Assembly (NCBI RefSeq): GCF_036588685.1
Contig: NC_086373.1
Location: forward strand, 81,282,001 to 81,346,000
Reading direction: 5' to 3'
Length of the DNA: 64,000 nucleotides
Origin: Mytilus trossulus
Taxonomy: Eukaryota
Program-made: the position numbers and the translations under genes
Notes under the pieces: model-generated
What the model was told of the DNA's origin: nothing
What the model saw: the letters and a program-made list of their open reading frames with translations, nothing else
The model's database searches: none
Shown here: piece by piece, positions 10,917 through 49,330 of the stretch
How positions within the stretch are numbered: position 1 is the stretch's first letter
How the letters are laid out: each line of letters begins with the position of its first letter

Positions 10917-13900
10917 CTATGATCTTATCAATTTAAAACCATGTCCAGTATCAATTTGTTTTGGAGGAAGCCACTTCATTCTCTTCCTTTTTAAACACCT
11001 TGTTAGACATTGACAACAGAAACAAAGGCTCCCTGCACCACCAATATTCACAGCTTTTATCAAAGGTTTCATACATCTTGGGAAGCTGCTATCCCAATGA
11101 TTATATATCTCATCTACAGTTGGTAAATGGAATGTGAAATCTGTCCAACATTTAGAAACTTTATATACTGCTTTTACTGTCCTCTCTTTTGCTGACCAAC
11201 CAGGAAATATTTCTGCCTCAGCATTAAAATGTACATAATCTTGTGTAAAAGTGCCAACCTGAGCACAATTACCAAATTCTATGTCCTTGGGTTTCTGGAA
11301 TGTACATGTTTGTATTGCAACATATTCTCCCCAAACTCTTTGTACATCTTTAGCCCACATATAGGAATGTGTAGTATCAAGAATTAAGATTAATCTGGTC
11401 CCTAATCCAGAATTTTTAGATGCCCACCATTCTAGTAGAGTCTCCAGTTTCAAACCACTATTATCTGTAATAAATTTATATAAAGATATGTTTAACAAGA
11501 GGCTGTCACAACGACAGCAAACCGGATTTATTAACATTTATTTGTGTCCTGGCAATATCACAAGAACCATTACTAATGATTAGTGGAAGTGAAAATCGTC
11601 CATATCAAATTTGACCTCCATTTTGTCATAAGTATCAACATATTAAAATTTGAAAAGCTTAGATTGAATGGTTCATGCGTAAATGCATTATTGAACTTGT
11701 CTACTATTTTTTCATCAGTAACAACATATTAAAATTTAGGAAGCTTTGGTAAAACAGTTCATGCGTAAATGCACAGACACGACTGGAAACTCCATTTTTC
11801 AATCTTTCAAGAACCATAACTCCTGAACGGTAAAAGTCAAAATGGCCATTATTGAACTTGACCTTCATTTAATTGTCAGTAACAACATATTAAAATTTTA
11901 AAAGCTTTGGTTGAATGGTTCATGAGTTAATGCACGGACAACATTTGATTGCCGCCCGCCCGGCCGCCCACCAAGCATCCCCAAATCAATAACCGACATT
12001 TTTGTCACAAAAGTCTGGTTAAAACATAAGCAATTTCTATCTTACATTTTGCTCATCTTATTTCTATGGTATGATTGCAAAAAGCAATATTTTAATAAAG
12101 CTAATGGTATCACATCATCATTGATAAACAAACCTCAACATATTTTCATTATATACATGTATACACTTGATAATAATGATCTAGATGGAAATTTTAGATG
12201 ATTTCATTTCTAAAAGATTAACCCCACAAAATAATGTATTGATAAGTGATATCCTTACATGTATTGTCTCTTATTCTTACTACTTGTCACAGTAATGGTT
12301 TATTAATCGACATATTTCAAACTTACCAGATAAAGCCCATTCACCATTTTCATATACATCTCCACTGAAATACAAGATATAAGAGTCATACTTTGGTCCG
12401 TCTGACATTCTTCTGTCAAAGAAGGCCTTTAATTTAGACTCTAAATAGTCAATAGCTAGCCCACTTGTTGAGTAATCACAGCCGTAGTTGTCTATCATGT
12501 GATAGTTGAAGAAAGAACTGACTTTGTTCAAAGTGGTTGTAGCCCTTGTCCCCATATCTTGCATTGCCTCTTGTGACATAATATTTACTCTTGATCCCCT
12601 CCTGAAATAAATCAAAATGGTACAATAAAATGTAGGTACAATGTACATGTAGGCTTATTATTCCTCATATACTAGTATGTGAAAAGCTACAGTAATAAAA
12701 ATAAAAACAGAAACAAATAATGCATTCATTCAAACAGCAAATCTTTGATTAAAAATATCATTCTTTCATACATGTATATCTGTTTATTAAATAACAATTG
12801 TCTATTGTTGAATATAATGAAAGTTGACAGACCACTTATCAAAAAATCATAAGCAGCAGATACTCTGAACCATTCTATGACCCTCTCATATCAACTGTTG
12901 TTGCGCTATAGTGTTTTAAAATTACTAAACATGAGAAAAATATGATCTCAATTATTTAAATCCTTATAAAGTCATATCCTAATTAGTTAAGTCTTGATGG
13001 TAACGTATCTTCAATGTACATGTAGACAGTTGGAACTTAATTCTCTGCTTAAATTAGCAGACAGCAAATAAAAGTGCAATGCATCCATGTGACATTTCAA
13101 AGTTTATAGTTTTAATCTTAATGTATTCAGGTTGTATGGTTTGATTAGTGTTTAAATCCATTTGCAAATATTACATGCATATGATTATCAAAATGAGAAC
13201 ATGATAACATAGTATGAATATGAACTTGTTTGTACTAGACAGATATAAATGTACTGATCCAGATTTTTAACATGGTACAAATGTACATGTACATTGTAGT
13301 TACACAAAGCAGTAGGGTACAAAAACAAAAACTTCAAAAAGACACAGCAACTCTTATAATAGACATATCATAACTACAGAAATTATCTTACTTATGACCA
13401 GTTACAGGAGCAATAACTGCATAGCCTGTTGCTGTGCCACCAAGATTATCACCAAGGTACCAGAACAAACTCAGTGTCATACATTCTATTGGTACTACCA
13501 GTAATATCATTCCTAAACTGTATGGCTTATCCTTTCCAGTTTCCCATCCTAATCCTCCAAGTAGAACTGTAGTCAACAAAGTTATACAGATGAGTCTTTG
13601 TGAGATCAAACTGAAATGGCGTACTCCTTTTGAAGCCATTATTCTGCTCATATTCTTACGCTCATCAGTCAAGCTATTATATGTAAGATTGCATTCAGTG
13701 ATTTTGGACATAAGTTTCCAGCATGTTATAAAATATGTCAAATGAAAACATAGCCAGATACAGGCAAAGAAAACAGTTAAAGGTACAACAATGTACCACT
13801 CTTTGTGATTGGCTGACAGTTTACCAATCACAGCACCTGTTGCAATGTTAAAGGCAAATACAGCAAGAACGAATATGTATCTTAAATATTTTGAAAGATT

Positions 13901-14638
13901 AAAAAATCCTTGCCATCTTTGCAGTGTTGTTAAACCAGAAAAATATAAATCAATGAATGGTTCAAAGGAATGTCTTGCTGCGAAACAGGCTAGTCCATAA
14001 AAGTTTCCCGACAATTCAACCTGCTGAAAAATTACAAAAACAGAAAGACACACCATTGCTATAAAACTCAGTAATCCTAGGAATGATTTTAGTCTAATAG
14101 ATGCTAAATGTACATTAAATGCAAGCACCAAAAGTGAAAAAGATAAGGCATCTTTTCCTGTTACAAGTGTTGAGATCATTAATCCAATACTTTCTAAAAT
14201 TTGTACTGTTGTAAACATCTTTGCTTCGTGTTTTACTAAATGTAACATCCTCTCTAACAGATTCCAACACCATGTTAATACAGCACTTGTTACTAACAAA
14301 ACATTTGTCACTTCTTGCGACATTACAAACGCAATCTCTTTTTGATCTGCAAATATAATTATGCCGAGGATACATCCTAGCCATATATGCAATAATGTCT
14401 GTCCAATGAGTTCAAAATTAAAATAATATCGCAAAGCACAGGAGACTGCAAAAACGAAAAATCCCAGTATTGCAAATCCTAGAATAACATTGTTCTGTGT
14501 GAACTGCCATTGTGTGTACAGTCCCAACCCTAATGCTACAACTAATACTACACTAGGCAAATATCTCAGGTAAGTCAGATTAGCTTTTGCTTTGCGGTCA
14601 ACCATGTCCTCCCCTTTGGCAACTTCTGTCTCCATCAT
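10917..14638 (-). CDS. TMEM168: Transmembrane protein 168, 3 coding exons, 689 aa
   Basis: Exons 14638-13392, 12601-12327 and 11464-10917, GT-AG and phase-compatible, 2070 nt. Multi-TM N-half. Hallmark motifs RIMASKGVRHFSLIS, YGCDYSTSG, YDSYILYFSG, LLEWW, RLILILDT, WTDFTFHLPT and C-terminal DTGHGFKLIRS. A 5'UTR acceptor lies at 14684-14685. Confidence 0.95.
11494..12025 (+). mobile_element. HINE/pearl-like non-autonomous element in a TMEM168 intron
   Basis: aacaagaggctgtcac start, degenerate internal repeats (caacatattaaaattt..aagctt..ttcatg), gccc microsatellite, 3' hairpin aaccga..tggtt followed by an A-run. Confidence 0.55.
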
Positions 14639-15558
14639 GAAACTTTTTTTATATTTGTCTTGTTCTTGTGTTGGATTGAAAACCTACAAAAATAATCAGA
14701 AAATTCTTTATCATAGTAGGATAATGACTAGGTAACATGGAAACAGTCTTAGTCAAATTAGGATCTACCCATTTTCTTCTTTTTTCTTTAAAGTTTCTAG
14801 CGATACTTGAATATCTGGTGTCAAGTTCCCCCTGTCAACTTAAAAAAAATAAAAATAATGTACATTGTATGTACACTTGAAAATTTACATTAAGATAAAA
14901 CTATATACATCTACATTTGATAACAAAATAGTTAGGGATAGAAAATGGGTCGTGGATGGGAGCAGATTCTGAGGTCATATTCTTGTATCCCTGTACTGTA
15001 CTGAATGACACTATTTATTGTGGCAGATGATTCCAATTATAACTGTCATGACTGTCTTTTTTAAATTTAGATGTGTGCAGTGGGATCAATAGGTTATATG
15101 TAGGAACTGCAACAATTTTGTGTATAATTTTGTATATTACATGTAAGAAGAAGTCTGTATCGTAAATGCCTAATTTCAAGTGGGTACTAACTGTTTTAAA
15201 AGGTTTAAATTTGTTTATGACCATCATTTGGAAAGTTTGAAATTTATTTATATACAATATTCACTCTATTCTAAACAACGGATCATGCAAGGGCATACAG
15301 AACTTCCATATATATGATTATCATGTATATACATGTACATGTATCTTGAATAATACGACTATGCATTTATCTCATTGAAATGAAAGGTCAATACCCATGA
15401 TACCATCATGACCGACCATACTTCCCCATTGCCATAAATCATCTTTAGCCTTCAGGCAATGTTTGATTGACACCATTCCTTCAATAAAGGTAAACAATTG
15501 ATATGTGTGTGAAATGTATAATCATGATGTGTCTAATATTCTTGCGACTGTTAGGAAT

Positions 15559-20369: not shown

Positions 20370-23300
20370 ATGACAAATAATTCAAACCATTCTAGACCTA
20401 CGTTACCCGACAGGATAGATAGATTAACAGACAGAGGAGCACATGATAGGATAGATAGAGGATCAAGTGGTAGAACCGAAACGACAGATAGAACGTTAGT
20501 ACTTCCAGCATATACACTGAATGGAAGACATGCTAATTTTGCTAGTCAACGTGAACTTGTGGAAACAGAGGACGACGAATTCACAGTACCAATACTTCCT
20601 ATGGGATTAGCCGTTACATGTGGTGTTCTTAACTTTATTTTACCTGGATTCGGTAAATATGTTTTCATTTTTGGTTTTGAGTTAAAAATACAGTAGAAAT
20701 CTGATGTACAGTAGTCGTTCATACGTGTTTCTAGTTTTCATACTAGATTAGACCGTTGGTTTTCCCGTTTGAATGGTTTTACATTACAAATTTTCGGGGC
20801 CCTTTATAGCTTGCTATTCGATGTGAGCCAAAACTCCGTGTTGAAGGCCGTACCTTGCCCTATAATGGTTTACTTTTATAAATTGTTATTTGGATGGAGA
20901 GTTGGCATTCATACCATATCTTTCTATATCGAAGTACTCTATTTTATTATTTTGATATACACTCTTGTTTCCAAAACTACTTTATAAATCTGTTGTAATT
21001 AGAATCATATTCAAAACAGTGTGGTCCTGGGCATTGATTGACGACCTAAATTATCCCATTGACTGGGACAGATTAGGTGAACGTTTGTCTGTAACGACCA
21101 TTGCTCACTTCTTACTTATTATAGAATTTAAACTGTGGGGTCACCAAAGGTTCTTAACGCCTTTAATAACAAAATAATTCGAAAAATTATTCAGGAATAA
21201 CCTTTATGTTTTAATTTATATTATTGATATAAATCAACACATCGTAATATTCCGGATTCGTTTTTTTTATTGCTTTATTTAGGTGTTGAGAACCTTTGGT
21301 GACCCCACAGATTCAGTGTCTTTAACAAGTACATAGTGAGCAGTGATTGTTACCGACAAACGTTCACTATAATTTGTCCCAGTCAATGGGATAATTTAGG
21401 TCGTCAATCAATGGCCAGGACCACACTGTTTTGAATATGATTCTAACATGTCTACGTGTCATCTATCGGGGATTAAGTAGCGAATCTTCTTACATCCGTG
21501 TTTTATACATTTTACACAATAATATTGCCCAAATATTATCAATGCTGTGTACAAAAATCCGTCGAAAATCAAATGTAGGACTGTTGTTGAAATTTATAGG
21601 TATATGCTCTGCCTTTTCAGGGACTATAATAGCTGGACTATGTGCTCCTTGTTGTGCGAAGTCTGAACTAGGAATAAAAGACTACAGTTGTGTGTCTGCT
21701 TGTGTAATTATAGGAGTTGGATTTCTCCAACTTCTCCTGACAGCTTGCTTTCTGATTGGTTGGGTATGGAGTGCAATATGGGGAATAGCATTGATAGGAA
21801 CAGCATGTAAGTATAGAATAGTAATAATTTACTCCATAGATTGGCATACACATCGAAAGTACTAAGTATTTGAATACAAAGAGACAATTTGTAATATTTC
21901 TGTTAAATTCAATATGACATCTTCAACGTATTGTAATATGCTTTCAAATAAAAACAGCACATAGTTTTTATGCTTTAGTGCTAACTTAGTCAAATTGAGT
22001 CATCTTGTCTAAGTAATCATTTCCTTATAACCATTCCCGCGTAAGGAGAGTTTCACGTTAAAAAAAACTATCGCAACATCACTTTGAAGGACTTTGAAGT
22101 GTGCATAGCGGGCCTGTTGCATAGCAAAATAACTGCTCCTCTACAACATATTCAAGTGCTTATCAAAAGACACACAATTTGCACCACCTATGCATAAACG
22201 ACTTTTTTAATGTGATATCGTCATGAAAATGTTTGAAATATTTGTAACTGGGCGATACTAATGATAAACAGACAGGAATCACAACCTAATCAGACTTTAT
22301 TGAGGGATCGAGAAGTTGCTCCAACAGAAGGGTACTTTCACGAGTAGGCGAATGAAATATTATTGATTTAAAAAGAGCATTTCAGTTTGAAATACCTTAG
22401 TAAACATTAGTCCCCTTATAATGAAATATCGATACTTTATGGTTTGTATGGTTGCTTATCTGACTTATAAATTAAATACTTATTTTTCTCATATTTTTTG
22501 CTCTGACTTAAACTTTTTCATTCCCAGATAACAAGCATGTGCAAAATATGTAATCAATTCGAAAAGAAGAACAATCTCGATGTAGAGAATTGCGAACCTA
22601 GAACTTATATAAAAAAAAAACATTTCAACTGGTTTGAATTAATAATTTTAAAATATTGGACTGTCTTTTCCTTTTCTTGTTTAACCAATGTAAAATTAAT
22701 TTAAAAATTTATATTACACAATGCTTTATTTTGTCTTTTACAGCTGATTTTTCAAACTACAATCCGTTAGATCCAGAATCAACATACTGGCGCAATAGGC
22801 CATCATCTAACCGATCCAGGCGAAGTATAAGGCCTCGATCAAATTTCATCTATCCTATGAGGGCACCATCAAACGTAGATTATAATAGTCCTCCTCCTCC
22901 ATACCAAATGTTCGGAACACCTCCACCTCGCTACGCATCTAGACCTTCATCCGAAAGATACAGAAGTACTACAGCGTCACCATTAACAACAGATACAAGA
23001 CGGCTAAATGATGTGTCATCTGCAAGAACTGTAAGTTTGTAAAAAAAAAATAACGTAATTAGACCTCTTAAAATGTTTGAGTTTCCTCTACATTTCGAAC
23101 CATGTCTACATAATATGAAACGGCAAATAGAATTTCCATTTCTAAAATGATTGAAAATGACGATCAAAGGAGAACCTTATAGAAACAATTCCTATAATTT
23201 CAAAAGCTTTAAACACAATGCATTTCTATGAAAAGATTATGATGTTATATATAAAGATTAGAAGATGCGGTATAATTAACAATGAGACAACTCTCAACCA

Positions 23301-24356
23301 GAGACCAAACTACATAGAAATCAACTTTAGGTCATCAGAAATCCTTCAATAATGAGTAAAATCCATAAATGGTCTGAAACACAAGTCCACGAATATTTCG
23401 TACAGACAAAACATGTATATAATGGAGGTGAGATGTAACTGTAAACATTCTCATCCTCTCTGGTGGATAGTCGTCCCTTTGACAACCATAAATCGTCTTT
23501 TAATTATACGTATCTTATTCCAAATAAACGGACTTACCATTCCATAGGTGATCCTGACATTCAAATAAGAAAAACAACTGTTGACATCAAAAGATCGCAA
23601 GGATTTTTTTTCGTAGATTTTTTAAAGTTATGACAGCATATATCTTTCGCCAAACTGACTCAAATTTAGTTTTGATGCTTTGAACTCTCAAACTGACTTA
23701 TGTTTGTTTTATAGATGACAACGACACAAATAATGGAAGATTCGAGTGAAGTTATGTCTTGGGATTGTCCCCAGTGCAATAGAGTATATGAGGCTGATAT
23801 TCGTAAAGTATGTTTATAGAGATTTTTTTTCTTTAAACTATTTCCATAGTGTCGAAAATATTTATAGAACTGGGTCAAAGTCGTTTGAAATTATAGTTTT
23901 GTTATTCCTACAGTGGCTATACTTCATGTAGTATGGCCTGTATTAAATAACTTAGCACCACACCAACATCAAGAGTGTGTACCCACAAAAACGTCAAAAA
24001 CTTCATACAAAGAATGTAGCATTTAAAACTAAGATTGGCGAATGCTACATATACTCTAAATTGATTGGTTTGTTCCATTTTAAGTATTATAGAAAGTTAA
24101 AGTAAATGCTCTCATTATGCCCAATAGCCCTTCGTCACACTGTAGTAGGTTGTTTTGCTGTATATCAGAATAAATGGGCAAACGATTCAGTTATTCGTAT
24201 TTTTCTCGTTTTTAGCATCTTTGTCGGCGTTGTTCAAGAGATGTTTGTGGAAGGTGTTATACTAAGGTATTGAGAACTCGTGCTGAAGACAGAGTATCAG
24301 TGTGTGATAAATGTTTTACAGAAGTCTCACAGGATCCGAGGATGCAAAGAATCTGA
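20370..24356 (+). CDS. SPEC3/Stum-family membrane protein A with PPxY motifs and C-terminal FYVE-like zinc finger, 329 aa
   Basis: Exons 20370-20652, 21621-21806, 22744-23030, 23715-23807 and 24216-24356; all GT-AG, in phase, 990 nt. Stum motifs VPILPMGLAVTCGVLNFILPGFGTIIAG and GFLQLLLTACFLIGWVWSAIWG. Ends WDCPQCNRVYEADIRKHLCRRCSRDVCGRCYTKVLRTRAEDRVSVCDKCF. AATAAA at 24429. Confidence 0.82.
20999..21446. mobile_element. Long-TIR MITE in an intron of Stum-like A
   Basis: Inverted arms of about 160 bp: ttagaatcatattcaaaacagtgtggtcctgg...ccaggaccacactgttttgaatatgattctaa. Confidence 0.8.
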
Positions 24357-25563
24357 AAATAGAAAAAAAAACTAACATTTCAGTATTGCTGCTAGTCAGC
24401 GTAAATCAAAATGAAAAATTAATACTGTAATAAAGGCAATGAATTTAAGTATTTTATATAAATTGTCAAATCCGCTGGTTCGGATGTTTATGTGCAGTCT
24501 TTTATCAACTTTATTACCATATGAAATAAATACATACTTTTGTTTGAAAACATTCTTTATTTTGAAGGCCGTACATTGACCAAATTGTTATTTGGATGGA
24601 GAGTTGTCTCATTGGCACTCACACCGCATCTTCCTATATCTATTTATTGGTAGATCAAAATGTGGGAATCCTGTCCGCTCCATTGCTGATATATTCTCTT
24701 TAAGTAATCAAGATTGGTTTTGAAAAAATAAGTAAAATTTCCATCCTGAAGACAGTGATCTTGTTGTATACTGACCGACGTTAAAAGCCTTTCATAGATT
24801 TTGATATTGGATTTTTTTCTCTTTAATAATCATAAAATTTGTGACAAACTGAACACCTATTTATTGCCTGTTGTCAGCTTTCCTTTCTGTGGTGGTGAAG
24901 ATTTTTTTCCCCAGTTCAATCGATGTACACGCATTCACAGGGACTAATTAGATTGCAATACACAAAATTAAAGTGATTGCCATAAATAAAAGCCTACGAT
25001 TGGAGAATTTAGTCGCAGCTACTTCGACAGATACATGGTAATGGTAATTTATGGCACAGAACTATCACAGTAGGAAACATATCAACTATAAGAGGAAAAC
25101 CAAGGAAACAGGAATACCGTAGTGCCAAAAAAATGCCAGCACACATGGAAACGAACTAATAGATAACTGCCATATTCTTCGGTACAGGATATTTTAAGAA
25201 AAAAATGATGGGTTGAACCTGGTTTACTGACTAGCAAACCTCCCGCTTAATGACAATGTTTAAAATATCTTCAAAACACTACTTGACAGAAATACAACAC
25301 AAACACACACAGGAACATTCATATAACAGAGAACTGAACTATCATGGCTTATCTAGTAAGTTAGGTTCAATTGTAAAGACCGACATTTGATAACGACATT
25401 TTATTTTCAAATCACTTGCTGTTCATGCTGTATATTAGACAGAATTGTGGTTGTTATAAGGAATATTCTTCCGTGCATCCGCTTGGGAGAGTTGCCATTT
25501 TCATCTGGCACAAGCTCGATGACGAAAAATTAAGTCTTTAAACTGTATACTAGTATAGTAGAG

Positions 25564-25705
25564 CAGTGACGGATCCAGAACTTTATGGAAAGGGGAGGGG
25601 GCTGACTGACGTAAGGGAGCCGCTGCTCCAGTCATACTTCAGTGATTCCCTATATGATCAACCCAATTTTTCACACAAAGGGGGGCTCCCTTGGATCCGC
25701 CTATG
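25564..25705. mobile_element. Short non-autonomous TIR element with 5-bp TSD (hAT5-like)
   Basis: cagtgacggatccag...tggatccgcctatg flanked by tagag. A degenerate relative lies at about 61668. Confidence 0.65.
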
Positions 25706-27221
25706 TAGAGAATAGAATAGAATATTTATTATTCCATTCAAGGGCCCTTGATGGACAGCATGACAATGTATCATGATTTTCAACAGATAAAACAATTCTT
25801 TTATGCATTGAAATGAAACTTTTATAAGTTAAATGATCTCTTCAACTTTTAATCGTAGTTTAACTCAAATGGTGTATTGATATTTAAAGCCGCTAGTGAC
25901 AATTTGTCCATTTTCATATTGCGCAAATGTCCATTAAAAAAAGCGCAACCGTTCTGCGCCGCTTTAAAAGGTGTGATTATTTCATTGGTATTTCTCAGGG
26001 CATAACAGCATAATTGCTTTTTAAATAAGTTTTTTTTTAAATTGTATCCTGGATCGTAATTGGTCAATGTCTAGTTTTTATGTTTGTCATTTTGTTTATT
26101 AACATACACCGTCCAACCTAGAAATATAGTACTGACAACATATAATGTCCCGGCCTTATTATTTAGTTGCAGATTTTACAATCCATAAGGAAATTTAATT
26201 TCTCTGAGTTTGACAAGCTCAGTTAGTATGTTTCAATTTATTTAAAAAAAAAATGTAAATAGAATAAAGAATGGAACGTTACGGGAAATTGTCAATTTGA
26301 CAAACAAACAAAATCCCGATCACAGTCGAAAAAGCAAAAATGTGTATGCCCAAGGCCACCATGTCCAATGGGTCTTAAAAGCAGCGAAATAATCGGGCAC
26401 ACGGAGGTAAGCTTCAACTGGCCCTCAAACAATAATGTATCATACTACTTCAGAGAAATCATGGACGCCTAAACTAAGTCTCAAACAAACGAATGAACCA
26501 AAATTAAAAAAAAGAAAGACACACAAGACTAACAAAGGCTAGAGGTACCTGGCAGGCCCAAAATGCGGCTGAGTTAATTTACGCTCAGTTTATGTGCTTC
26601 GGTGTGGGATCTCAAAATTCCTCTATGATATGCCTTGATACGTGAGGGAAGGAGACGAAAGAGTATGGAAATGAATACTTTGAGGACCTAACTGTTATTA
26701 ATAACTAGGAAAATAACTTTTCCCAGGAACGCATGACCATGATTTGATTTGATTTTTTGTTGATTTTAACGCCACTTTAAAGGACCGCATTTAGGGCTCA
26801 AACTCACAAATGAAATTGAAGTCTGCATAATAAAATGCTGCGTGGGCTATTCTGTTCAAACATGATAAATCCGCGCGAAATAATTAGCCCATGTTCAAAT
26901 GAAAATAATAAATTATTCAATCTCTTTTTTACTTTTTATCTATACTTATGACAATAAAAATATTGATATTATGGTGTTTTTTTTTAAAGTGAATCCAATA
27001 TTTGAAAATAAATAAACTAAAATTATATTTATTCAAAATGTATTTTTCTGTCTTCCCAGGTATTCATATTTCCCGCTAGTTTTAACTTTAAACAAGTGTG
27101 AGTCTCCTGTTACTAAAAATAACCATATTGATCAATAAAACGTGATCAATTTTTACATGTAAGTTAGTGTATTAGTGTATTCAATACACAACCACCGAAG
27201 TAAACAAAACAAGGAAAGAGA

Positions 27222-30200
27222 ATGGGACTAGGAGAAGGTAGTGGTTGTAGGCCCAGGGCCAGGGCCAAAAAAGACAGAAAATACATCCCGGCAATGCCCA
27301 TGCCCCTGGCAGTAATATGTTGTATATTAAATTTTCTAGTTCCAGGTATAGGTGAGTAATACAATTATGTCATTCAGATTCATATTTCTAAGTATATGTG
27401 AGTGTCAACACGCATTGCACATTTATAGAATAATTGAACATATCTTGCATGTGGAAATTCATTCACTAGATATGATATAGTTTAAGGTATCATTGACATG
27501 TTACATATACATGTATATTATTATTAAAGACATTAAAAGTGACAACAGAGACCAAATGACGTATAGTATACTAAAAAGTAAAATCACTATTCTATACTTT
27601 ATAAATAGATGTAGTCATTTTTGTCAATCATATGAATAGTCCCAAAAAATAAACTATATTTATTTCAGAATATTTTTACCCATATCTATATTTTTTTTTT
27701 ATAGATTTAGTCCAAAAAAATATAGATATGAAATGGCCATTGAACTTGTACTAGTCAGAGAAATTTATCTGGTGCAGTCGTTCTAGGGGAGCTATATTGT
27801 AAAATATTGCACTGATATATTGTATTAAAATAAAAATAAAAAAATAGAACAAGGCATTATAATACTGTCTGATACCTATATTTTGTTTGTTTTACAAAAT
27901 ATGCTTTAATTATAGTAAAAGAATGCTGGTTTTCATATATATAATACATACATGTAACATTATAAAAAAAGCAGCTGAATATTCAATATTCAGACGCATT
28001 GCTTCTTTTATTACGTTTAGAACACAAACACATAGAACAAAAAAAAAATAACTGAAAATTAAATACTTGTTTCAATATGAAAACTTGTGTTTCTGTAGAC
28101 CTATCTTTGCCAATTTTCTGCCACATGTTTTTTTTAACTTTTCAAATCTTTTAAATGACATGAATGAGATAAAATTTGTTTGGTTATTTACTGGTTATTT
28201 ACTGGTCGAAAAATATTTCAGTTTTTATTATAAAATGTCTATAGATGTTAGACGAAATGTGAATTTGTATACAATATAAAAATTATTACTTTTAAGGTGG
28301 CTCGGGTCTTTTCGAAGTTTCTATCAGAAGTACCGTATTTTTGTTATTCACTCTTTACAGAAAGTGAATCAAATTGGTCGAAAAAACAGGTGGTCACAGA
28401 CCATTTAAGCTCACAATTTTACTTTTTAACAGGTATGTAAAAGGAACCATTTTTCAATGAAATGATAGGGAAAATAAAGGGGTTGACATATTTTTATCGG
28501 AATATCAAAAAAACGGTCTATGACACTTGGTACAAAACTGTAATATAAAAGCTGAAATATAGCTTCAAAGAATGAGCAAACAAAAAACATAGGTCACCGA
28601 TAAGGAAAAAAAATATTTTGCCTTTTAACCCAAATTTTGGCGGGAACATGATGAAAATGGGTTAAATGTTTATAAATAAATGTGAGCAGCCACTTCCTGT
28701 TTGCCGATAGTTTAAAATATTACAACACTTATCGTAGAAGAAAAATTCTCGTCATGTTCTTGTCTTCATTCATGTTCGGTATATGAGGGGCCCAATGTGT
28801 TATATCCTTTCTTCGTGATCGGCGCATTTTGGCTATTGTAATCCGTTTTTCTACAGATTTTTTTTTATATATTTTCGTGATCCGTGATAATGAACAAATA
28901 ATTTTCTGTGAATCGTGCTTGACAAAAAAATCAACTCGTGAATTGTGATGAGACCACACCCCAACACAAGGCCCCTCATATATGCAACCTCAATCCTCGC
29001 CTCAATCAATAACATGCAGTGACAGAGGTACAGGCTCGTTAGTTATCTTGTATGAATACAATGTATACTGATTCTTATTTATAATGCTCCACATGGTTAA
29101 TATGAATAATCCCAAAATGAATAAGAATACCTCGAGAAATTTTGAGAAAATAAAACACTTGTAAACACTAGAAATGGTTTATTTTCCTATTAAGAAACAT
29201 AGTAATATATATGTTGTGTACAATATGTAAGTTTGTACAAATTATAAGTTTGTACAAATTATAAGTTTGTACAAATTATAAGTTTGTACAAATTATAATT
29301 TGTACAAATTATAATTTGTACAGTGTCTTGTACAAGTGATAAGTATACACAATATAATTTTAGACAAAAAATAGAAGGCCCAGTCTTCACCCTCACAATC
29401 ATTACTGTCCCACACACCAATATGCCATATCGGTTTTGTTCATTTTTTCGGGTCCTACTAAAATGCGCCCGGGAGCGCCCGGGTGAAGAAATAGCGCCCG
29501 GGGAAAATAAAAAGCGCCCGGAGAAGAAAATATAGCGCCCGGGGAACAGAAAAAGCGCCCGGGGAAAATATTTGTATATTTTATTGGCATGAGACAACTT
29601 TGTTAAGTTATGGACATTGATTTTTTTTTTAATTTTAGACAAGTAATTTGCAAATTCAGATAATAGACACTTGTAATAAAGCATACATACAAGTATTGTT
29701 ATGCGTTTACTTTTCTACATTGGTTAGAGGTTCAGGGTGAGGGTTGAGATCTCACAAACATGTTTAACCCCGCCTCATTTTTGCGCCTGTCCCAAGTCAG
29801 GAGCATCTGGCCTTTGTTAGTCTTGTATTATTTTAATTTTAGTTTCTTATGTACAATTTGGAAATTAGTATGGCGTTCTTTATCACTAAACTAGTATATA
29901 TTTGTTTAGGAGCCAGCTGAATGACGCCTCCGGGTACGGGAATTTCTCGCTACATTGAAGACCTGTTGGTGACCTTCTGCTGTTGTTTTTTTATTTGGTC
30001 GGGTTGTTGTCTCTTTGACACATTCCCCATTTCCATTCTCAATTTTAAGTATGAAAAATTCAATAATAGACCTCAGGCACCGATTATTTTTTTTTTAACC
30101 GGCAAAATATACATTTTGATCGAGGACAATATCTTTCATGATTCTTCTATATACTCTTATTTATACTTATTTACTAAATTGTATACAATTTTGAAATCTA

Positions 30201-33200
30201 AAATGTAAAAGTACAACAACACCTTAGATGTAGCATCGTACGTGTCCCCATTTTATTAAGGACAAAACAAGCAATGATAAGTTATTTTTATTGAAAAAAA
30301 ATATTGTTATTACATATAATTATTTTCTTCTCCCGGGCGCTTTTTCTGTTCCCCGGGCGCTATATTTTCTTCTCCGGGCGCTTTTTCTTTTCCCCGGGCG
30401 CTTTTTCTTTTCCCCGGGCGCTTTTTCTTCACCCGGGCGCTCCCGGGCGCATTTTAGTAGGACCGATTTTTTCATAGTTAGAAAAGAGGGACGAAAGATA
30501 CCAGAGGGAAAATCGAAAATAAACTGACAACGTCATGGCTCAAAATGAAAAAGACAAACAGACAAACAATACTACACATGACACAACATAGAAAACTAAA
30601 GAATAAGCAACACGAACCGCACCAAAAACTAGGGGTGATCTCAGGTGCTCCGGAAGGATAAGCAGATCCTGCTCTACATGTGGCACCCGTCGTGTTGATT
30701 ATGTTATTACAAATCCGGTAAATAGTCAAATTCGGTAGGTCACATTCATGAAAGAGAAAGGGATTTGTGAAACGGTTATTCCATAACGGTCAACCAACTC
30801 ATGATGGCGTCCGTAAAATTAACGAAGGGATGATTTCAAGTTTACCAACTGAAACTCTTGGTTTAATAGCTTCCTTGTGAGCAGCAACCCTCTATCAAGA
30901 AAATCATGATAGGAAATGCAAGCACGGGAATATCGTATTAATTGGGAGAAATATACACCGTATACAGGTGCTGCTGGAATGTTGCTACTTGGAAATGGAA
31001 AGTTTACAATTGGAAAGCTGAAATCATCTCTTTTGTCGTAAAGTTTTGTTTTCAACTGACCCTCTTGTCAATTTCTAGATGTATGTCAAGATATGAGGCC
31101 GACTTAACTGTATCTGACTGTAGTATCCTTTATCTCTAGTTTGATAGGATAAATGCGTTCAACATAGTCACCAAATTTTGAATTATTTAGTGAAAGAACA
31201 TCATCTATATAGCAGAAAGTAGAGTTAAGGTCAAGTTACAGTAAATGGGCTATGTCACAGATTTTAGTAAAATTTTGCATACAACTCTGGCTCAATGAAC
31301 TCCAACTGAAAATCGAAAAAATAATGCATTTATCTCAATTATCATTTGAAATATCACTGATTGAATTCTTACAAAATGGGTGAACATTTGTATAGAAAGC
31401 ACATAAAATTGGCGAAAATCCTTCTAAAATTTGTCTTAAAATCGCCTAATTTCTAAATCTACTCCATAGATTTTTCTTAAAAAACTATATGCTGTTGATA
31501 CATAAATTTCCGTTATAATGATGCAAAATAAAGATAGGGTCACCGACTTCGTTTTTACAATATACATCAACAAAGTTGCGTTATTTGTGAAAAAATCCAA
31601 CAAAACGTCGAAATAATCGTAACTTTATGGCGTTGCAGGCCGTAAAACGTTGATTTTTGACATTTTTCACAACCAAAAAGGTAACAAATTGATAATTAGA
31701 CAAAAAACTAAGTCGGTGACCCTATGATTATTTCATATCATTAAAACAGAAATTTATGTGTCAACGAAATATAGTTTTTTAAGAAAAATCTATGGAGTAG
31801 AATTAGAGATTTGGCGATTTTAAGACAAATTTTAGATGGTTTTTCGCCGATTTTATGTGTTTTCTATACAAATATTCACCCATATTAAAAGAAATCAATC
31901 TGCAATTTTTCAGATGATAAAAGAGATAAATGTATTATGTGTTCGATTTTCAGTTGTAGTTCAACAAGCCAAGGTTGTATCCAAAATTTAAGCAAAATCT
32001 CGAACATAGCCCATTTACTGTTCCTTGACCTTAAAGGATATTGCTTACCTCTTATCTTTCTTCCTTAGAAGTTCCTGTATGAAGTCAGCCTCATAATAAT
32101 AAAGAAATAAGTCTGCAAGAAGAGGGGCACAATTTGTTCCCATTGGGATGCCGACAGTCTGTTGAAGTATCGCCTATGCACATGCAAGAACCATATATAT
32201 CACCCATAATGCCATTTAGCCTTGTCCCGTTGCATGTGCCTATCACATTTTAGTTCTAAATCTCGAATTCTTAATAACACAGTAGGAATTTATTCATATC
32301 TATACTCGGAACTATTTTGACCATGTTATACTGTATAAGACAAGTGTTTGAAGTTGACCTGTACATAATCCCACAGTGACATCTCTGTTAATTCGTTTAC
32401 ACGGTATCTATTAAAGGTTTTGAGGTTCCAAAAATAAACGTTTAGAATAATTAAGAAAGAAACTACATTTTTCTCCCTTGAAGTATAGTAAATATTTATA
32501 ATTTCAGGTACAATTCTAGCTGGTTTTTGTGTGTGTTGTTGTGCTAGAAATGAAGATATGACGTGTTGTGACAAGTTCTGTAGTTCCTTTCTAAGTGTTT
32601 TGTTTGGACTTTTACAAATTATACTCGCTCCAGTACTTTTTGTTGGATGGGTATGGAGTTGTTTTTGGGGAGTTTCTTTCATTGGAATGTCAAGTAAGTA
32701 TAAATGTATAAACTTCTTTGTTTCGTAATATCATAGAATAACCTTAATGATATTCATAGTGTGTAGTATTATTGATACAACTACTGTACTAACATAAACA
32801 CAATAGATACAAAGCACAGAAATAAGAGTACTGAAAACTAGTTCAAAATCCAATTTCAACTAATGAATAAACGATGTTCTCCAATATTAACGAATCAATC
32901 ATTGCACATCCAACGGATTTTATATATATGTATATATATAAGTACGTCGGAGTCAGTGATAACTCTACAACAGATGTATCCATCGGATCGCCATCAATGA
33001 TGGTGATACATGGCTGTGTACATAATGTATATATTACTCGTCTAAACATCAACCCAACAATGTTAGATCTGTAAATTTGCTTTCGCAAATTGTTGGTTCT
33101 TCCCTCGCCGGGATTCGAACCCATGCTACTGTGATATCGTGACACCAAATCGCCTGCACTGCAGCCGTCCCGCTAGACCACACGACCACCTGGGCTCTAA

Positions 33201-34854
33201 AAAAAGAGCTTTCGGTGGGCATGTGTTACCTTTCCACGTCAGTTTTAATCTAGCGGCGTACTACAGTACATGATATATAAGGCATGAAGATGTTATTGTT
33301 TACAGATCAGCTAAATTGTCTATAGTAAAGGATCCTACAAATTAATGTAAGATACAGTCACAGAAAATAATTATATTCATAAGTACGTCTGAGTCAGTGA
33401 CAACCCTACAACAGATGTATCCATCGGATCGCCATCAATGATGGTGATACATGGCTGTGTACATAATGTATATACAACTTGTCTAAACATCAACCCAACA
33501 ATGTTAGATCTGTAAATTTGCTTCCGCACTGTTGTAGGGTTGTCACTGACTCAGACGTACTTATGAATATAATTATTTTCTGTGACTGTATCTTACATTA
33601 ATTTGTAGGATCCTTTACTATAGATAATTTAGCTGATCTGTAAACAATAACATCTTCATGCCTTATATATCATGTACTGTAGTACGCCGCTAGATTAAAA
33701 CTGACGTGGAAAGGTAACACATGCCCACCGAAAGCTCTTTTTTTGAGAGCCCAGGTGGTCGTGTGGTCTAGCGGGACGGCTGCAGTGCAGGCGATTTGGT
33801 GTCACGATATCACAGTAGCATGGGTTCGAATCCCGGCGAGGGAAGAACCAAAAATTTGCGAAAGCAAATTTACAGATCTAACATTGTTGGGTTGATGTTT
33901 AGACGAGTTGTATATACATTATGTACACAGCCATGTATCACCATCATTGATGGCGATCCGATGGATACATCTGCTGAAGGGTTGTCACTGACTCAGACGT
34001 ACTTATGTATATATTATATATAGTGAGGGTAAAAAGACGTCATCAACGGCTTGTGCAATGCAAAAATATAAACAGGATGTAGGATCAAGAGTTCTTACAA
34101 TTAACACCAATTGTCGGTAATAAAGATGGCGATCGATCAATATTGAAGTACTGTATATACAAGTAGTCAATTAAAATTAACTAAATATGTTGCATGTAAT
34201 TTAAAACATGTTCTATATCTCATCCTAAATGTCCTAGACTAACAAAATAAAATCAAAACAGCCAATAGTGCTGACTGCAAAAATCTTATTTTACAGTTTG
34301 TAGTACTTAATAGGCACACTTTTAAAACTAAAATTGTTATTCATTACGCAAGTGGACCCTGGCGGTTGTAAACTTACCATATTAAGCGATGTAATTTAAA
34401 CTATGCAAGGTCAGATAAGACGTTATATATATATTTGTTTGTACATTTTGTAGAGGAATACTATCATGATAATAAACCATTTGATGATGCACAACCAAAT
34501 ACCGTAGTGACCAGTCAACCTGGTGCAAATCCCAATCTTGGTCAGTGGAGTTCACCGCCTGGAGGACCATACGGTGGACAGCCTGGTCCAAGTGAAGGAT
34601 ATTATCCACAAGGGGGTCAATATCCTGGACAGACTGGCCCAGGACCCGGATACTTTCCAGGAGGACATACAGGGTATCCACAAGGACAATCTAATCAATC
34701 ACCTATTGCTCCTTCTGCACCTCCGGCGGAAGACAACTCGGGATATCCACATCCAGGATATCATGAGCCACCACCAGGATATCATGAACCACCACCAGGG
34801 TACCATGAGTCACCACCTCCTTATGATGTCAATGATCCACATCCAAAGAAATAA
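27222..34854 (+). CDS. SPEC3/Stum-family membrane protein B with Pro/Gly/Tyr-rich tail (PSAP and 3 PPxY), 238 aa
   Basis: Exons 27222-27351 (MGLGEGSGCRPRARAKKDRKYIPAMPMPLAVICCILNFLVPGI), 32508-32693 (GTILAGFCVCCC...GLLQIILAPVLFVGWVWSCFWG) and 34454-34854. GT-AG, in phase. The middle exon is 186 nt, exactly as in paralogue A. Confidence 0.88.
29225..29322. repeat. 17-bp minisatellite
   Basis: taagtttgtacaaatta repeated about 5-6 times. Confidence 0.8.
29450..30465. mobile_element. TIR element with subterminal gcgcccggg repeats and 8-bp TSD; carries a nested dispersed repeat
   Basis: TIR ggtcctactaaaatgcgcccgggagcgcccgggtgaagaaa; TSD attttttc at 29442-29449 and 30466-30473. Confidence 0.8.
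29690..30047 (-). repeat. Abundant dispersed repeat (aattgagaatggaaatggggaatgtgtcaaagagacaacaacccgacc family)
   Basis: Close copy at 36945-37345 (+); fragments at about 26270-26620, 50296-50380, 51790-51850 and 59830. Confidence 0.8.
30482..32166 (-). mobile_element. Penelope-like retroelement fragment (RT C-half plus 3' tail), split by a MITE
   Basis: FQQTVGIPMGTNCAPLLADLFLYYYE (about 32165-32090), YIDDVLSL, SYLD, and KLYDKRDDFSFPIVNFPF..SNIP..YGVY.SQLIRY. The segment 30482-30700 is shared with 37348-37575. Confidence 0.85.
31229..32030. mobile_element. 802-bp near-palindromic MITE with TTAA TSD and GG..CC ends (Kolobok-like)
   Basis: ttaa|ggtcaagttacagtaaatgggctatg...catagcccatttactgttccttgacc|ttaa. 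Removing it rejoins the Penelope-like RT. Confidence 0.85.
32939..34005. mobile_element. tRNA-derived (SINE-like) repeat as tandem plus inverted copies, forming a ~1.07-kb palindrome
   Basis: Arms 32939-33414 and 33529-34005 are near-perfect reverse complements. The unit is about 441 bp. tRNA-like segment with A box tggtcgtgtgg and B box ggttcgaatcc at 33749-33844 (+), mirrored at about 33100-33196 (-). TA-rich flanks. Confidence 0.8.
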
Positions 34855-37347: not shown

Positions 37348-38270
37348 AAAGAGGGACGAAAAATACCAAAGGGACAGACAGTCAAACTCATAAATCTAAA
37401 ACAAACTGACAACGCCATGGCTAAAAATGAAAAAGACAAACAATATTACGCATGACACAACATCGAAAACTAAAGAATAAACAACACGAACCCCACCAAA
37501 ACCTAGGGGTGATCTCAGGTGCTCCGGAAGGGTAAGCAGATCCTGCTCCACATGTGACACCCGTCTTGTTGCATAAGATGTAACCAAAGAAAATAAACAA
37601 AATGACAATACATAAAAAACATCATCATACTAGCAGTTAACAGACATGCCAGCTCCAGACTTCAATTAAACTGATTGAAAGAATATGTCTTCATCATATA
37701 AATAGCAGGCACAATCCTTACCGTGAGGGGTTTAGTATCATACTATCATAACACATATGAGAAGAACACAACCCGTGTCATGCCAACAAATGTTTTTTTA
37801 AATATATGATTATTTTGTGCTTTATAAAGAATATTTCCATAAAATAATCGATGTAAAACACCTGGACGTATAAGAAGTCTGCATGTTGAGCTATATTTTC
37901 GAATGATGTCCTTATACCGATGGTAAAATTTTTAGTTAATGTTTTGACTAGTTTGTGATATCGAAAACCCTGGTGTAATAATTTATAAGTTATACGTAAA
38001 TTTCTCTCGTTAAAATCTAAAACAGTGTTACATACACGAGCGAATCGTACAAGTTGAGATATATAAACACCGTAAGATGGTGACAAGGGAACGTCACCTT
38101 CTAAAAATGGATAATTAACGACAGGAAATGAAAAATCATCTCTTTTATCATAAGTTTTAGTATAAAGCTTTCCGTTAATGATATAGATATCAAGATCGAG
38201 GAAAGTGCAGTGGTCATTGTTAGTATTAGCTTTATTTAAAGTAAGTTCAACAGGATACATTTACTAGTAT
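37348..38270 (-). mobile_element. Penelope-like retroelement fragment
   Basis: ORF 37778-38260 has YP.ELTL, FLDLDI, YDKRDDFSFPVVNYPFLEGDVP..PSYGVYISQLVRFARVC and a frameshifted end. Its 3' region resembles 49250-49330. Confidence 0.85.
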
Positions 38271-42474: not shown

Positions 42475-45400
42475 TTAAGAACGGCGGATTGGTGTCTTAC
42501 TTCTTGAACTATGTTGAGTTTCATTGCTTTTTGATTTTATTGCTTGAGTTTCATTGCTTTTTGATCTATGTCGAGTTTTATTGCTTCTTGATCTATGTTG
42601 AGTTTTATTGCTTCTTGATCTATGTTGAGTTTCATTGCTTCTTGAACGGTATCGATGCATTCGGCGTCTAGTGCGTTTCATGTGTGTCTGGCTTCTAGAC
42701 CGATATTTTGTTTCATTGCTTCTTGATCGGTATCGATGCGTTTGGCGTCTAGTGCGATGCACGTGTGTCTTGCTTCTGGACGGATGCTGTGTTTCACTGC
42801 TTCTTGGTCGATATCTGCGTGTACGATGAACGGGTGTGTTACTTCTTGATCGTTCTTTCCTTTTTCTATTGCTTCTTTTTTGTTTACAGTCATTTTCATT
42901 GTCTTGATGTTTGTGTTCACGGGTTTTCCTTTTTAAACCATCACGTTTCGCTTGCTGTTCGTCTGAAGGAGTAGTGTTTGATTCAGTTGTTTTAACCACA
43001 CATTGTTCAGAATAACAATCAGGTTCAAGGTCAATGGCAGATCTGTCAGCCCAAGGTTTCTCGTACTGGGTAATGATAATACTTTTATCTATTATCATAC
43101 TATTTTCAATACCAGAATCGTTCTTTAAAGACGTGAATGATGACCGCCTTGTTTCATTATCTTGATCTATAAAGGTATGAAATATAAATTAGACACAAGT
43201 TTTCCATCTCAGTAACGTCTTTTCCAAATTTTGTTGTTTAACAAAAAAAACCATTCTGACACATGTATGCTAAAGCTGTCCCAAAGCAGGAGCCCGTAAT
43301 TTATTGGTTGTGTTTTTTTGTTGTATGTTTTTGATTTTCGTTCATTATTTTGTACATATATCAGACCATTAGTTTTCTAGTTTGCATTGTTTTACATTTG
43401 TCATTAGGGACCTTTTATATCTGAATATATTGTATGGTCTTTGTTCATTGTTGAAGGCCGTACAGTGACCTTTAAATGTTAATTTTTGTGTTATTTGGTC
43501 TCTTGTGGAAAGTTGTCTCATTGTAAATTATACCCTATCTTTTTTTTATATAACAGGTAGTCACTTGATAACAGACCACTCGCTTGTGACAGTCACATGG
43601 AGAATGTGACGGAGCTAAACATATATATGTAACCGCTCAATTATCTCGTCACCAGGGGATAGAGGTGTAACGACACAACATAAAAACAAACATGATAAGG
43701 CTCGATTCATCGGATCGCTACTCAGCACTTAAAAATAACAAAAAGACGAAAGATACAAAGTATGAAACTGAGACCAGTATTCGCAGTAACTGAAATATAG
43801 TTTAAAGCCCAATAACAATAAATTATGTTTTCTAAGACTAAACCATCAATATGTGCACTACCATTGGATTAAGCTATTTTACCTTTATATGAAAATTATT
43901 TCATGTTGGTTTATGGGTGCCTTCCAATGCAAAATATTTCAATTTCAAACGCTTCCCATTGTCATTTCAATATTCACGTCTTTTTTCCTAGTTTGCGGCA
44001 TGACCGAATGAATGGTCATCGAAAATGTACTTGCCATTTTCAACACGATGGGCCGGTGCCACATGTGAAATAGGAGATCTGCATACCTTTCAGGAGCACT
44101 TTTAAGAATCTTTTAAGACCGCCTTCGATTTTTGTTGATTCCGTGTCGCTGTGTTTTTTATTTCTATTTAGTGATTCTAGAGTGGGGTGCCCATATTCGT
44201 CGGGGACACAATTTCGCCGTTTTATGATTTTGAGGTGTAAAAACATCAATGGATGGCTGAATTGGAAGACATATACCGGTTATTGATATAAAAAACAAAT
44301 ATGATTATTTTTTAAAACTGAGACAAAATTGCGGCACCTACTGAAAAGGACCGAAAAACGGACAACAATTTTCGGCCAATTTCCTAAAGAAAAACACGAA
44401 TTCAAAGAAGTATTTCTAAGTAATTCTTTGACTGAATGCCCTAAATTTCAGTGCTTTTAACACCTTTGAAATGTCTGCTATTCATCGATAATGAAATTGA
44501 TTTGATTAATGTTGTTTAAAGCTGCGTTTTTTTTGGTTTTAAAAAGATGTGTAATAAACAGCTGCGCAATGAGCGCATGATACGCCCGATGTCTTGTGTG
44601 GAAGTTTTATGCAATAATCATAAAAAGTTTCTGAAAATGTTTTAAGCAATAACCATATGTTGTTTTTGAGACACGGCGGGACATGTGAAACCCCCAACCC
44701 TGTTTTTTGTTTTTTTACATTATCATCAAAAAACAAAATATCACTAAAATAAAATTTTGAATCAAAACCAAAAAGTATACAGATCTTAAGATTAATATAA
44801 CAAAGAAGTGTGTAAAGTTTTAAGCAATTATCATAAATTATTTCTGAGATACGGCGCGACATGTAAAATAAAGGGCTGCGTTTTGGCGCATGATACGCCT
44901 GTTGCTCTTTTAACTTGTCTTTTATGCTTTAAATGAATTTATATGATCAACTAGAAATAGTGTGAGCCCTGTCAAATACCCCCCCCCCCCCCCTCCCCAT
45001 ATAATAAATAAAAATGCACAAAAAAATTGGCACTATTAATGTCAATAGATATAAACAATTTATCAAAGTTGCATAAAATTTTGTGAAAGTGTTAGTTATG
45101 GAAATTTAAAATCTGAAATTTATAAAAATTGAAAGAGGGCTTACATCAATAGATATAAACAATTCACCAAAGTTTCATGGACATTGGTGGAAGCCTTTTT
45201 GAGTTATTGTCCGAAGTGTTAAAAATCCCCCTTTTTTTATGAATTAAGCCCCATAAATCCAAAACTTAAAATCTGAAATTTATAAAAATTGAAAGGGAGC
45301 TTACATCAATAGATATAAACAAGTCACCAAAGTTTCATGGACATTGGTGAAAGCCTTTTTGAGTTATTGTCCGAAGTGTTGAAAATCACCCCTTTTTTAT

Positions 45401-47894: not shown

Positions 47895-49330
47895 TTCATC
47901 TCCGCTTCGAGTAAGTGTTCTACTACTAATTTATCAGTGCTTCTAACCACCTCCCTTACTACTATCAAAGAACTGGTTATTAACTTTTGTAATAAAGCTT
48001 ATGAAAATATTGGTATTAATTATTTTTGGAGTGTTAAAAATTCTTTAGAGGTTTTAGATAAAATACATGCTTTCAATGGTCCTTACAATTCTGTTGACAG
48101 TTATGATTTTTCTACTCTGTACACTACACTTACACAATCTTATAAAGAAAAAGTTTTTGTATTTGATAAAATGGTCTTTCGAAAAATCTCATTGTAATTT
48201 TATTTGCTGTAACTCGTTTAAGGCCTTTTTCTGTAACGAAAAAGGAAAGTATGCTAGATGCACTTACTGGAAATGTGAGGATATGATTGAAGCTTTAAAC
48301 TTTCTGCTTGATAACATTTATGTACGTTTCGGCGATAAAGTGTATCGTCAGGTAGTAGGTATTCCTATGGGCACCAACTGTGCCCCTTTAATAGCAGATT
48401 TACTTCTATATTGCTATGAATCTCAGTTTATGACCAAACTCAGAAAAGACCCATCATTGTTTCATTTAGTTGATACATTCAAAATAACTACCGTTATTTG
48501 GATGATATTTTTTCGTTGAATAATCCAGAGTTCTCTAAATATACTTCAGAAATTTACCCAAACGAACTTACTTTAACTAAATCTAACATAAACAGCAGCA
48601 GCTGTCCTTTTCTAGATTTAGACATTTCAATTTCAAACGGGAAACTTCACACTAAAATTTACGACAAAAGAGACGATTTTTCATTTCCTATTGTTAATTT
48701 TCCTTTTTTAGACGGCGATGTGCCTTTGGCTCCATCATACGGTGTTTATATATCGCAACTCGTTCGGTTTGCCCGTGTGTGTTCTGATGTCATAGATTTT
48801 AACGAACGTAATCAATGCATCACTGGTAAATTGTTGTGTCAGGGATTTCGATACCATAAATTACTTAAAACTTTTACTAAATTCTTTCATAGATACAAAG
48901 ATTTGATTAGTAAATTTGGCTATACCTGTAGAAAGCTTATTAAAAATTGTATTTCACATCCTAAATTTTATGGTAATCTTGTACTTAAAGCGAGGAAATC
49001 ACTATGTGATCCTTGTAAACTCGTCGAACCTTTAAACAAACTTATAAGTAAGGGTTATCGTACCAATATTGTAATTAGATCTCTGAATATAGTTCACATT
49101 GGCACTAATATTGATTTTGTCATTAGCAAATTAAAACATAACTAAATTTCATTATCTTTTGAGGCGAGATGTATAGAGACACAGACACGTTAACTTTTAT
49201 TTCTATAGATGTCGCTCTTCACTATACTACTACCTGTCGATACATTTATTTTTGACATTGCACTAGTCATGTCTTCTTTGACTATTAATGACGTTAAAAT
49301 ACTAAATCCCTGTGATGTGTTTTTGATAAG
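47895..49330 (+). mobile_element. Penelope-like retroelement RT, 5'-truncated with two frameshifts
   Basis: ORFs 47937-48197, 48067-48519 and 48498-49145 carry YDFSTLYT, RQVVGIPMGTNCAPLIADLLLY, RYLDDIF, FLDLDI and YDKRDDFSFPIVNFPFLDGDVP. Confidence 0.9.

Follow-up and report, generated by a model that had tools for sequence, protein, structure and literature searches.

We analyzed a 64,000-nucleotide (nt) stretch of Mytilus trossulus DNA (NCBI RefSeq assembly GCF_036588685.1, contig NC_086373.1, positions 81,282,001 to 81,346,000; here, the window), which carries two forward-strand genes, A and B, between positions 20370 and 34854. Both products share the membrane domain of the SPEC3/Stum family (sea urchin Spec3, Drosophila Stum, and human STUM/C1orf95) above the Pfam cut-off, and both have C-terminal tails with conserved PPxY motifs. 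B also has a PSAP motif, and A ends in a FYVE-type finger. The reading that we favor, at slightly better than even chances, is that A and B are membrane proteins that recruit NEDD4-family ubiquitin ligases through PPxY and act as sorting adaptors, with B also recruiting endosomal sorting complex required for transport I (ESCRT-I) through TSG101. The spliced genes, their domains, and the conservation of their motifs are the base of this reading.

Gene structures and the shared membrane domain

Gene A has five coding exons. The first (20370..20652) encodes a polar N-tail and the first helix of the Spec3/Stum domain, and the 186-nt second exon (21621..21806) encodes the remainder of that domain with its Cys loop. 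The third (22744..23030) encodes an Arg-rich linker and a conserved tail block (22839..22934), which begins with SNFIYPMRAPS at 22839 and contains two PPxY motifs, SPPPPY (22887-22904) and TPPPRY (22917-22934). A preliminary description of this DNA had ended the gene at 23042, and this needed correction. A GT donor after 23030 extends the gene into exon 4 (23715..23807), which encodes the first CxxC of the FYVE-type finger, and exon 5 (24216..24356), which encodes the remaining finger and the stop (PF01363 E = 7e-5 on this exon alone).

Evidence for splicing came from GT..AG joints in contigs of four sequencing runs, which are not on record as RNA and whose contigs give no tissue or level. Joints 21806/22744, 23030/23715, and 23807/24216 were found in 4/4 runs and the first joint, 20652/21621, in 2/4. 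A single 1469-nt contig covers all five exons with zero mismatches. The resulting 329-amino-acid (aa) model, exon 4 included, is identical to RefSeq protein P0160 (329/329 residues), and other Mytilus records match it at 321 to 328 of the 329 positions. A 255-aa form, read through to the stop at 23040-23042, is the RefSeq model in Mytilus californianus (P0003). It is disfavored as the product of gene A because the 23030/23715 splice is in 4/4 runs, and it may occur as a minor short isoform beside the spliced form.

Gene B has three coding exons and a 238-aa product. Exon 1 (27222..27351, joint in 4/4 runs) encodes an MG start, a basic patch, and the first helix of the Spec3/Stum domain, and exon 2 (186 nt, 32508..32693) encodes the membrane domain. 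Exon 3 (34454..34854, joint in 3/4 runs) encodes a Gly/Pro/Tyr/Gln-rich tail (24% Pro and 10% Tyr) with APSAPP (34708-34725), EPPPGY twice (34765-34782 and 34786-34803), and SPPPY (34810-34824). Every motif named in the preliminary description, in A and in B, lies where it had been placed. Gly2 and the basic patch are found in 13/14 B-type proteins (defined below), and Gly2 could be a myristoylation site, judging from these sequences. A myristoylated Gly2 usually has Ser or Thr close by, and such residues are inconsistent here. The introns of A and B contain long inverted repeats that resemble miniature inverted-repeat transposable elements (20999-21446, 29451-30464, 31225-32034, and 32931-34013), and contigs that originate in other places pile up to high depth over parts of them.

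The two 186-nt exons both lie between phase-1 introns, encode six (A) or eight (B) Cys residues, and give products identical at 23/61 aa. Each matches the Pfam Spec3 family (PF15795) on its own, with 49.9 bits for A and 49.2 bits for B, and a full-length relative, P0002, reaches 77.6 bits (cut-off 27). The common intron position and phase and the Cys-rich transmembrane exon claimed earlier were thus borne out. So was the claim that the tails do not align. The tails of P0160 and the Mytilus edulis B protein (P0008) gave a local score of 50, where shuffled sequences averaged 42.2 (p = 0.15), which is no alignment beyond chance.

The membrane domain is the best-conserved part of these proteins, with 50 to 68% identity across orders. 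An AlphaFold2 model built from 117 rows predicts helices at 78-90, 94-106, 115-137, and 140-160, in which a short hairpin is followed by the Cys loop and then by a long hairpin that turns within two residues. Across 207 rows, Lys plus Arg residues average 2.6 ahead of the domain, 2.2 within the Cys loop, 0.005 at the GW turn, and 2.5 on the C-terminal side of the domain. This charge bias, together with the predicted helices, the zinc finger on the A tail, and the occurrence of PPxY on either terminus, places the N-tail, the Cys loop, and the C-tail most plausibly in the cytosol. If so, the loop Cys residues could be palmitoylated, as this modeled topology would allow. The domain had no clear match among solved structures (best helical Z of 5.8, no Foldseek match at E up to 0.001, and no usable Atlas match), and this is not evidence for a new fold.

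Conservation of the tail motifs

To define the A-type set, we took 23 rows, which are related by kinship; in the A- and B-type counts, four scallops represent one lineage. PPxY was present in all 23 A-type tails, compared with 2.4 expected from a whole-tail shuffle and 5.8 from a local shuffle. The reversed motif, YxPP, occurred in 3/23. The tails are otherwise only 22 to 39% identical to that of Mytilus, except in the two closest rows. The gene A PY motif sits in an alignable block, the surrounding tail is not low complexity, and [LF]IYP[MLI]R stands upstream of the first PY in 23/23 rows. For the window alone, the two PPxY motifs of gene A exceed chance only modestly (p = 0.009).

P[ST]AP was found in 0/23 A-type rows. 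The preliminary description had both tails carrying late-domain motifs, and this holds for PPxY in A and B, with PSAP confined to B.

Two further features of the A-type tails are recorded here as observations. SN[FL]IYP[MLI]R[AE]xS (22839-22871) is their most conserved element and matches no motif that we could name. ALIX ligands have the form YPx(n)L, and a reading of this block, IYP[MLI]R[AE][PRQ]S, as an ALIX ligand was ruled out because there is no Leu at the required places. YPxL and YPxxxL were also not enriched in the family-wide count of tails. An xM[FY] extension after PPPPY (22887-22913) is present in 12/12 FYVE-bearing and 0/11 FYVE-less A-type rows, a pattern confounded with kinship.

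The B-type set consists of 14 hand-picked rows; P0016 and P0192 were dropped as cluster duplicates, and the B-like P0020 to P0023 were left out. PPxY was present in 14/14 and PPPY in 13/14 (2.9 to 3.6 expected). PSAP was present in 11/14, compared with 0.7 expected for P[ST]AP, and its reverse in 0/14. Its place varies: in Mytilus and oysters, PSAP precedes the last PPPY by about 30 residues and in scallops by 7, whereas Dreissena, Solemya, Haliotis asinina, and P0009 have it downstream of the last PPPY. Seven B-type rows were first retrieved with profile A4, which held no PSAP. Therefore, the PSAP count in those rows, 5/7, is free of retrieval bias. Within the window alone, the three PPxY motifs (p = 0.031) and the PSAP (p = 0.029) of gene B exceed chance only modestly. 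The check suggested in the preliminary description has a positive outcome: bivalve orthologues, joined by some gastropod ones, keep PPxY and PSAP beyond Pro/Tyr-rich chance while their tails diverge.

A- and B-type records are carried on contigs of the same size in Mizuhopecten, Pecten, Argopecten, Mya, and Saccostrea cucullata (17,732 bp), and not in Solemya or Dreissena. This match of sizes, rather than of coordinates, points to an old linkage of A and B.

We also counted motifs across the family. A representative search gave 978 matches, of which the best 150 were used. They were part of a set of 155 proteins, 142 with the full domain, and 138 were counted after four close A rows were removed. 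In these 138, the C-tail count of PPxY was 42, compared with 11.5 by local shuffle. PPxxY gave the same figures (42 versus 11.5), mostly by overlapping PPxY. In N-tails, the count was 23 for PPxY (7.7 expected) and 5 for its reverse (7.4 expected), and the search profile had no N-tail PPxY. Reversed motifs were not enriched family-wide.

Trees of the membrane domain only were built with IQ-TREE and FastTree. The IQ-TREE one, a quick run on 85 columns short of a completed careful run, put PPxY in 46/60 rows on one side and in 1/82 on the other, among this best-match set. In 149 de-duplicated rows, the PPxY label changes 14 times over the tree, compared with 45 (minimum 39) after shuffling. This shows clustering only, because kin share labels. 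We looked up names for 30 representatives, mostly from the PY side. That side, on which A and B lie, includes sea-urchin SPEC3-like proteins, Clavelina, Ptychodera, Owenia, Macrostomum, and Microstomoeca roanoka, which we take to be a choanoflagellate. Unlike it, the side nearly free of PPxY includes the named Stum homologue, chiton (Liolophura) P0154, "protein stum homolog." P0154 falls in a starred set of 22 to 23 rows without A, B, or C types, and A and B are thus outside the Stum branch proper.

One alternative is that these are low-complexity Pro/Gly/Tyr/Gln tails, used for ALG-2 binding or self-association or without function, and that the motifs are by-products of composition. The makeup of the B tail fits this, as do its window-only p values of about 0.03, the enrichment of PPxQ along with PPxY, and the excess of PP dipeptides on the PY side of the tree (222 in 10,261 aa, versus 92 in 25,784 aa). 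However, the reversed motifs are not enriched (Tyr comes after PPx in 22% of cases and ahead of xPP in 5 to 7%), PSAP is in 11/14 B-type rows with 0.7 expected, and the A motif lies inside an alignable block of a tail that is not low complexity. For the A block and PSAP this alternative is largely refuted, and overall we regard it as very unlikely.

The FYVE-type finger and the proposed function

Several searches identified the finger at the end of gene A. PF01363 scored 31.6 bits on P0002 (cut-off 27.8), a profile comparison with EEA1 gave E = 1.5e-9, and UniRef automatically labels some A proteins "FYVE-type domain-containing protein." The AlphaFold2 model of the block has a predicted local distance difference test score of 86 to 93. 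In both fold searches, FYVE structures rank at the top, tied with others (VIA, Z 7.2, with 60 positions aligned at a root mean square deviation of 2.4). All eight zinc-binding Cys residues are kept in every listed FYVE-bearing row, and the sites of the basic signature read RKHLCR, RKFQCN, HRFSCR, TKFHCS, and the like. The canonical signature for phosphatidylinositol 3-phosphate (PI3P) is WxxD, R(R/K)HHCR, and RVC (PMC3247280). Since this signature is absent, gene A was ruled out as encoding a canonical PI3P-binding FYVE domain. The FYVE domain of protrudin, without the signature, still bound PI3P in vitro (PMC3247280).

The finger is present in 12/23 A-type rows, from mussels, scallops, oysters, Pinctada, and the protobranch Solemya. 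As far as annotated exons show, this distribution suggests an early bivalve gain and a loss in heteroconchs.

In the proposed mechanism, the two predicted helical hairpins would anchor the protein with the N-tail, the Cys loop, and the C-tail on one side, presumably the cytosolic one. The paired PPxY motifs would bind WW domains of a WW-HECT ligase, as expected from known motif biology, and the bound ligase would ubiquitinate the protein and its membrane neighbors. B would then pass the ubiquitinated complex to ESCRT-I, leading into multivesicular bodies or to outward budding. The finger of A, its PI3P signature lost, would make a weak lipid or protein contact and help to hold A on endosomal membranes, and the first PY of A, with its YxM[F/Y] extension, would accompany use of the finger. 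Finally, A and B would act on other membrane proteins, as LITAF, CYYR1, and Comm do; this is the least certain step.

Several observations weigh against this adaptor reading. Composition alone predicts a plain PPxY in about 8/14 B-type tails. The A- and B-type rows are kin. Because the profiles used to retrieve them included C-tail PPxY, the C-tail PPxY counts are biased upward. PSAP is missing in the B-type rows of Mya, Batillaria, and one Haliotis. The omitted P0020 to P0023 have PSAP in 0/4 and PPxY in 3/4, which brings the overall counts to 11/18 and 17/18. PPxQ is enriched in C-tails, too (32 versus 14.8). The two-sided split of the tree has a Shimodaira-Hasegawa-like approximate likelihood ratio test value of 90 on both sides and is unstarred, from 85 columns. 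The finger lacks R(R/K)HHCR, the WxxD spacing, and RVC, and no row has RHHCR, KHHCR, or RVC. It is missing altogether, by annotated exons, from 11/23 A-type rows, including Dreissena, Potamilus, Sinanodonta, Ruditapes, Mercenaria, and Mya. PPxY is also a general group I WW ligand that binds WW proteins other than ligases, and of 23 WW matches in the genome, only 11 are at four WW-plus-HECT loci.

This last point bears on a second alternative, in which PPxY binds non-ligase WW proteins (YAP/Yorkie, KIBRA, MAGI, or WWOX) and tethers a signaling scaffold to the membrane. Likely partners for the adaptor reading are encoded in the genome: each of the four loci (C4:26.2, C6:82.2, C7:64.5, and C2:12.5 Mb) has neighboring WW and HECT matches on one strand, and UEV matches were found at C10:33.1 Mb. 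The 11/23 proportion leaves room for non-ligase partners; however, a scaffold would leave both the conserved PSAP of B and the FYVE finger of A unexplained, and these two features point to an endosome/ESCRT route. We consider this alternative quite unlikely.

The conservation results fit a third possibility equally well, and they do not tell an adaptor from a turnover signal. The motifs could be signals for the proteins' own turnover, as in ENaC. A, B, and C would then be ligase substrates with a sensory role like that of Stum or a ciliary one like that of SPEC3, and NEDD4/ESCRT would set only the time that they spend in the membrane. Conservation is highest in the membrane domain, which is common to motif-free paralogues in the same genome (for example, the one at C3:59.1 Mb, which has a long tail and no PPxY). 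Fly Stum, moreover, is needed for proprioceptive mechanosensing (PMC10985947). Against this, A and B consist of little beyond an anchor and motifs. They have no lumenal domain, with only a two-residue turn between helices 115-137 and 140-160, and the only Lys residues in the tails of A are three in the C-tail. Furthermore, the combination of PSAP with PPxY is typical of sorting factors (PMC5142333). An added FYVE finger is likewise typical of them. Self-turnover is the main rival of the adaptor reading, although we regard it as unlikely.

The adaptor reading has several precedents. LITAF/SIMPLE is a small membrane protein with both termini cytosolic and a monotopic anchor that engages NEDD4 through PPXY and TSG101 through P(S/T)AP (PMC5142333), and B has the same motif pair. 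B differs in having a Spec3 anchor instead of the LITAF zinc-binding domain and in having C-terminal, nonoverlapping motifs. A Pfam search of every exon and of P0002, P0005, P0006, and P0007 gave no LITAF family match with E of 1 or less. The PY adaptors CYYR1, Commissureless, PRRG4, Rcr1/2, PMEPA1, and NDFIP are short proteins with juxtamembrane Cys residues and tails poorly conserved outside PY (PMC5578492), and CYYR1, which resides on late endosomes, binds WWP1 via PPxY (PMC11399591). Those described are single-pass proteins with a lumenal N-terminus, whereas A and B have a predicted four-helix anchor and no lumenal domain, plus PSAP or FYVE. Like A, protrudin (ZFYVE27) combines hydrophobic membrane regions with a FYVE domain that has the Cys residues and lacks WxxD, R(R/K)HHCR, and RVC (PMC3247280). 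Its FYVE domain (Z 7.2) is among the tied top structural matches to the A finger, with RUFY1 (7.1) and Hrs (6.7), a tied ranking that reflects fold only. No membrane domain shared by A with protrudin or Hrs/Vps27 was found. Protrudin also has links to Rab proteins and kinesin, and Hrs has VHS and UIM domains; A has no counterparts of these.

The preliminary description had gone further and proposed an adaptor family built on the Stum fold. Motif conservation and the probable cytosolic topology agree with that proposal. However, the trait marks the SPEC3-like branch rather than Stum, and A has no ESCRT motif.

Paralogue C, neighboring features, and the wider family

What had been described as a tandem pair is actually a trio. 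Paralogue C starts about 1.8 kb beyond the window end (L013:1796-4830, or G000:C1:81,347,796-81,350,830). Its predicted gene model has its own 186-nt exon and two PPxY motifs, in SPPPPYY and TAPPSY, and oyster P0028 and P0201, with two PPxY motifs each, resemble orthologues of it. An inverted second copy of the region lies 9 Mb from the trio (G000:C1:90.53-90.60 Mb, L015-L022). Its long nonrepeat blocks are about 83 to 99% identical to the first copy, and the A, B, and C proteins are near-identical. This copy is either an uncollapsed haplotype or a recent segmental duplication. Three further Spec3-domain genes are found at G000:C3:18.13, 56.89, and 59.09 Mb (L023-L031). The exon at 18.13 Mb is Stum-like by eye, the gene at 59.09 Mb has a long tail exon without PPxY, and no PPxY-bearing exon was recognized in the stretches fetched around the three loci.

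Elsewhere in the window, a multiexon membrane-protein gene at 10920-14683 on the reverse strand, without a Pfam match, is presumably TMEM168. Also on the reverse strand, a 392-aa open frame at 55869-57044 has no Pfam match and an Atlas lead (0.88), which is a lead only, to bacterial BLH/DSP-PTPase phosphatase-like clusters. At 42478-43188 and 49604-50287, again on the reverse strand, are two open frames that resemble each other and are rich in Arg and Ser, with a related frame at 51268-51561. Fragments resembling reverse transcriptases of long interspersed nuclear elements were seen by eye at 1974-3048, 37781-38260, and 47895-49142.

The tree allows a broader and more speculative reading, which we consider rather doubtful. 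An ancient PY-bearing SPEC3/Stum branch, with members in a choanoflagellate, sea urchins, tunicates, and molluscs, might be unrecognized NEDD4/ESCRT membrane adaptors, possibly ciliary, with the bivalve trio splitting the work. Spec3 has been tied to ciliogenesis (PMC4994401; also the Pfam description). Such adaptors would drive ubiquitin-dependent sorting or vesicle shedding, possibly at cilia. B, with Gly2 and its basic patch, PSAP, and PPPY, would be a Gag-like budding adaptor. A would have acquired its degenerate FYVE finger before protobranchs and pteriomorphs diverged, with later loss in heteroconchs, and motif-free Stum would represent a branch in which the adaptor tail was lost and the anchor retained.

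Every part of A and B is of a known type, and we did not find the Spec3-PY-FYVE fusion architecture described. In the open-licence literature, judged from titles, we found no PY, PSAP, or FYVE role for the SPEC3/Stum family. The family has phenotypes, in fly proprioception and sea-urchin cilia, and we found no biochemical mechanism for it. The finding remains a mollusc-centered variant of a well-known motif logic. Even so, if the tails recruit NEDD4 ligases and ESCRT-I, this branch of the family would become directly testable, and PY adaptors would gain a new type of anchor. It would also direct attention to the binding partners of the membrane domain common to the family, a question relevant to the workings of Stum itself.

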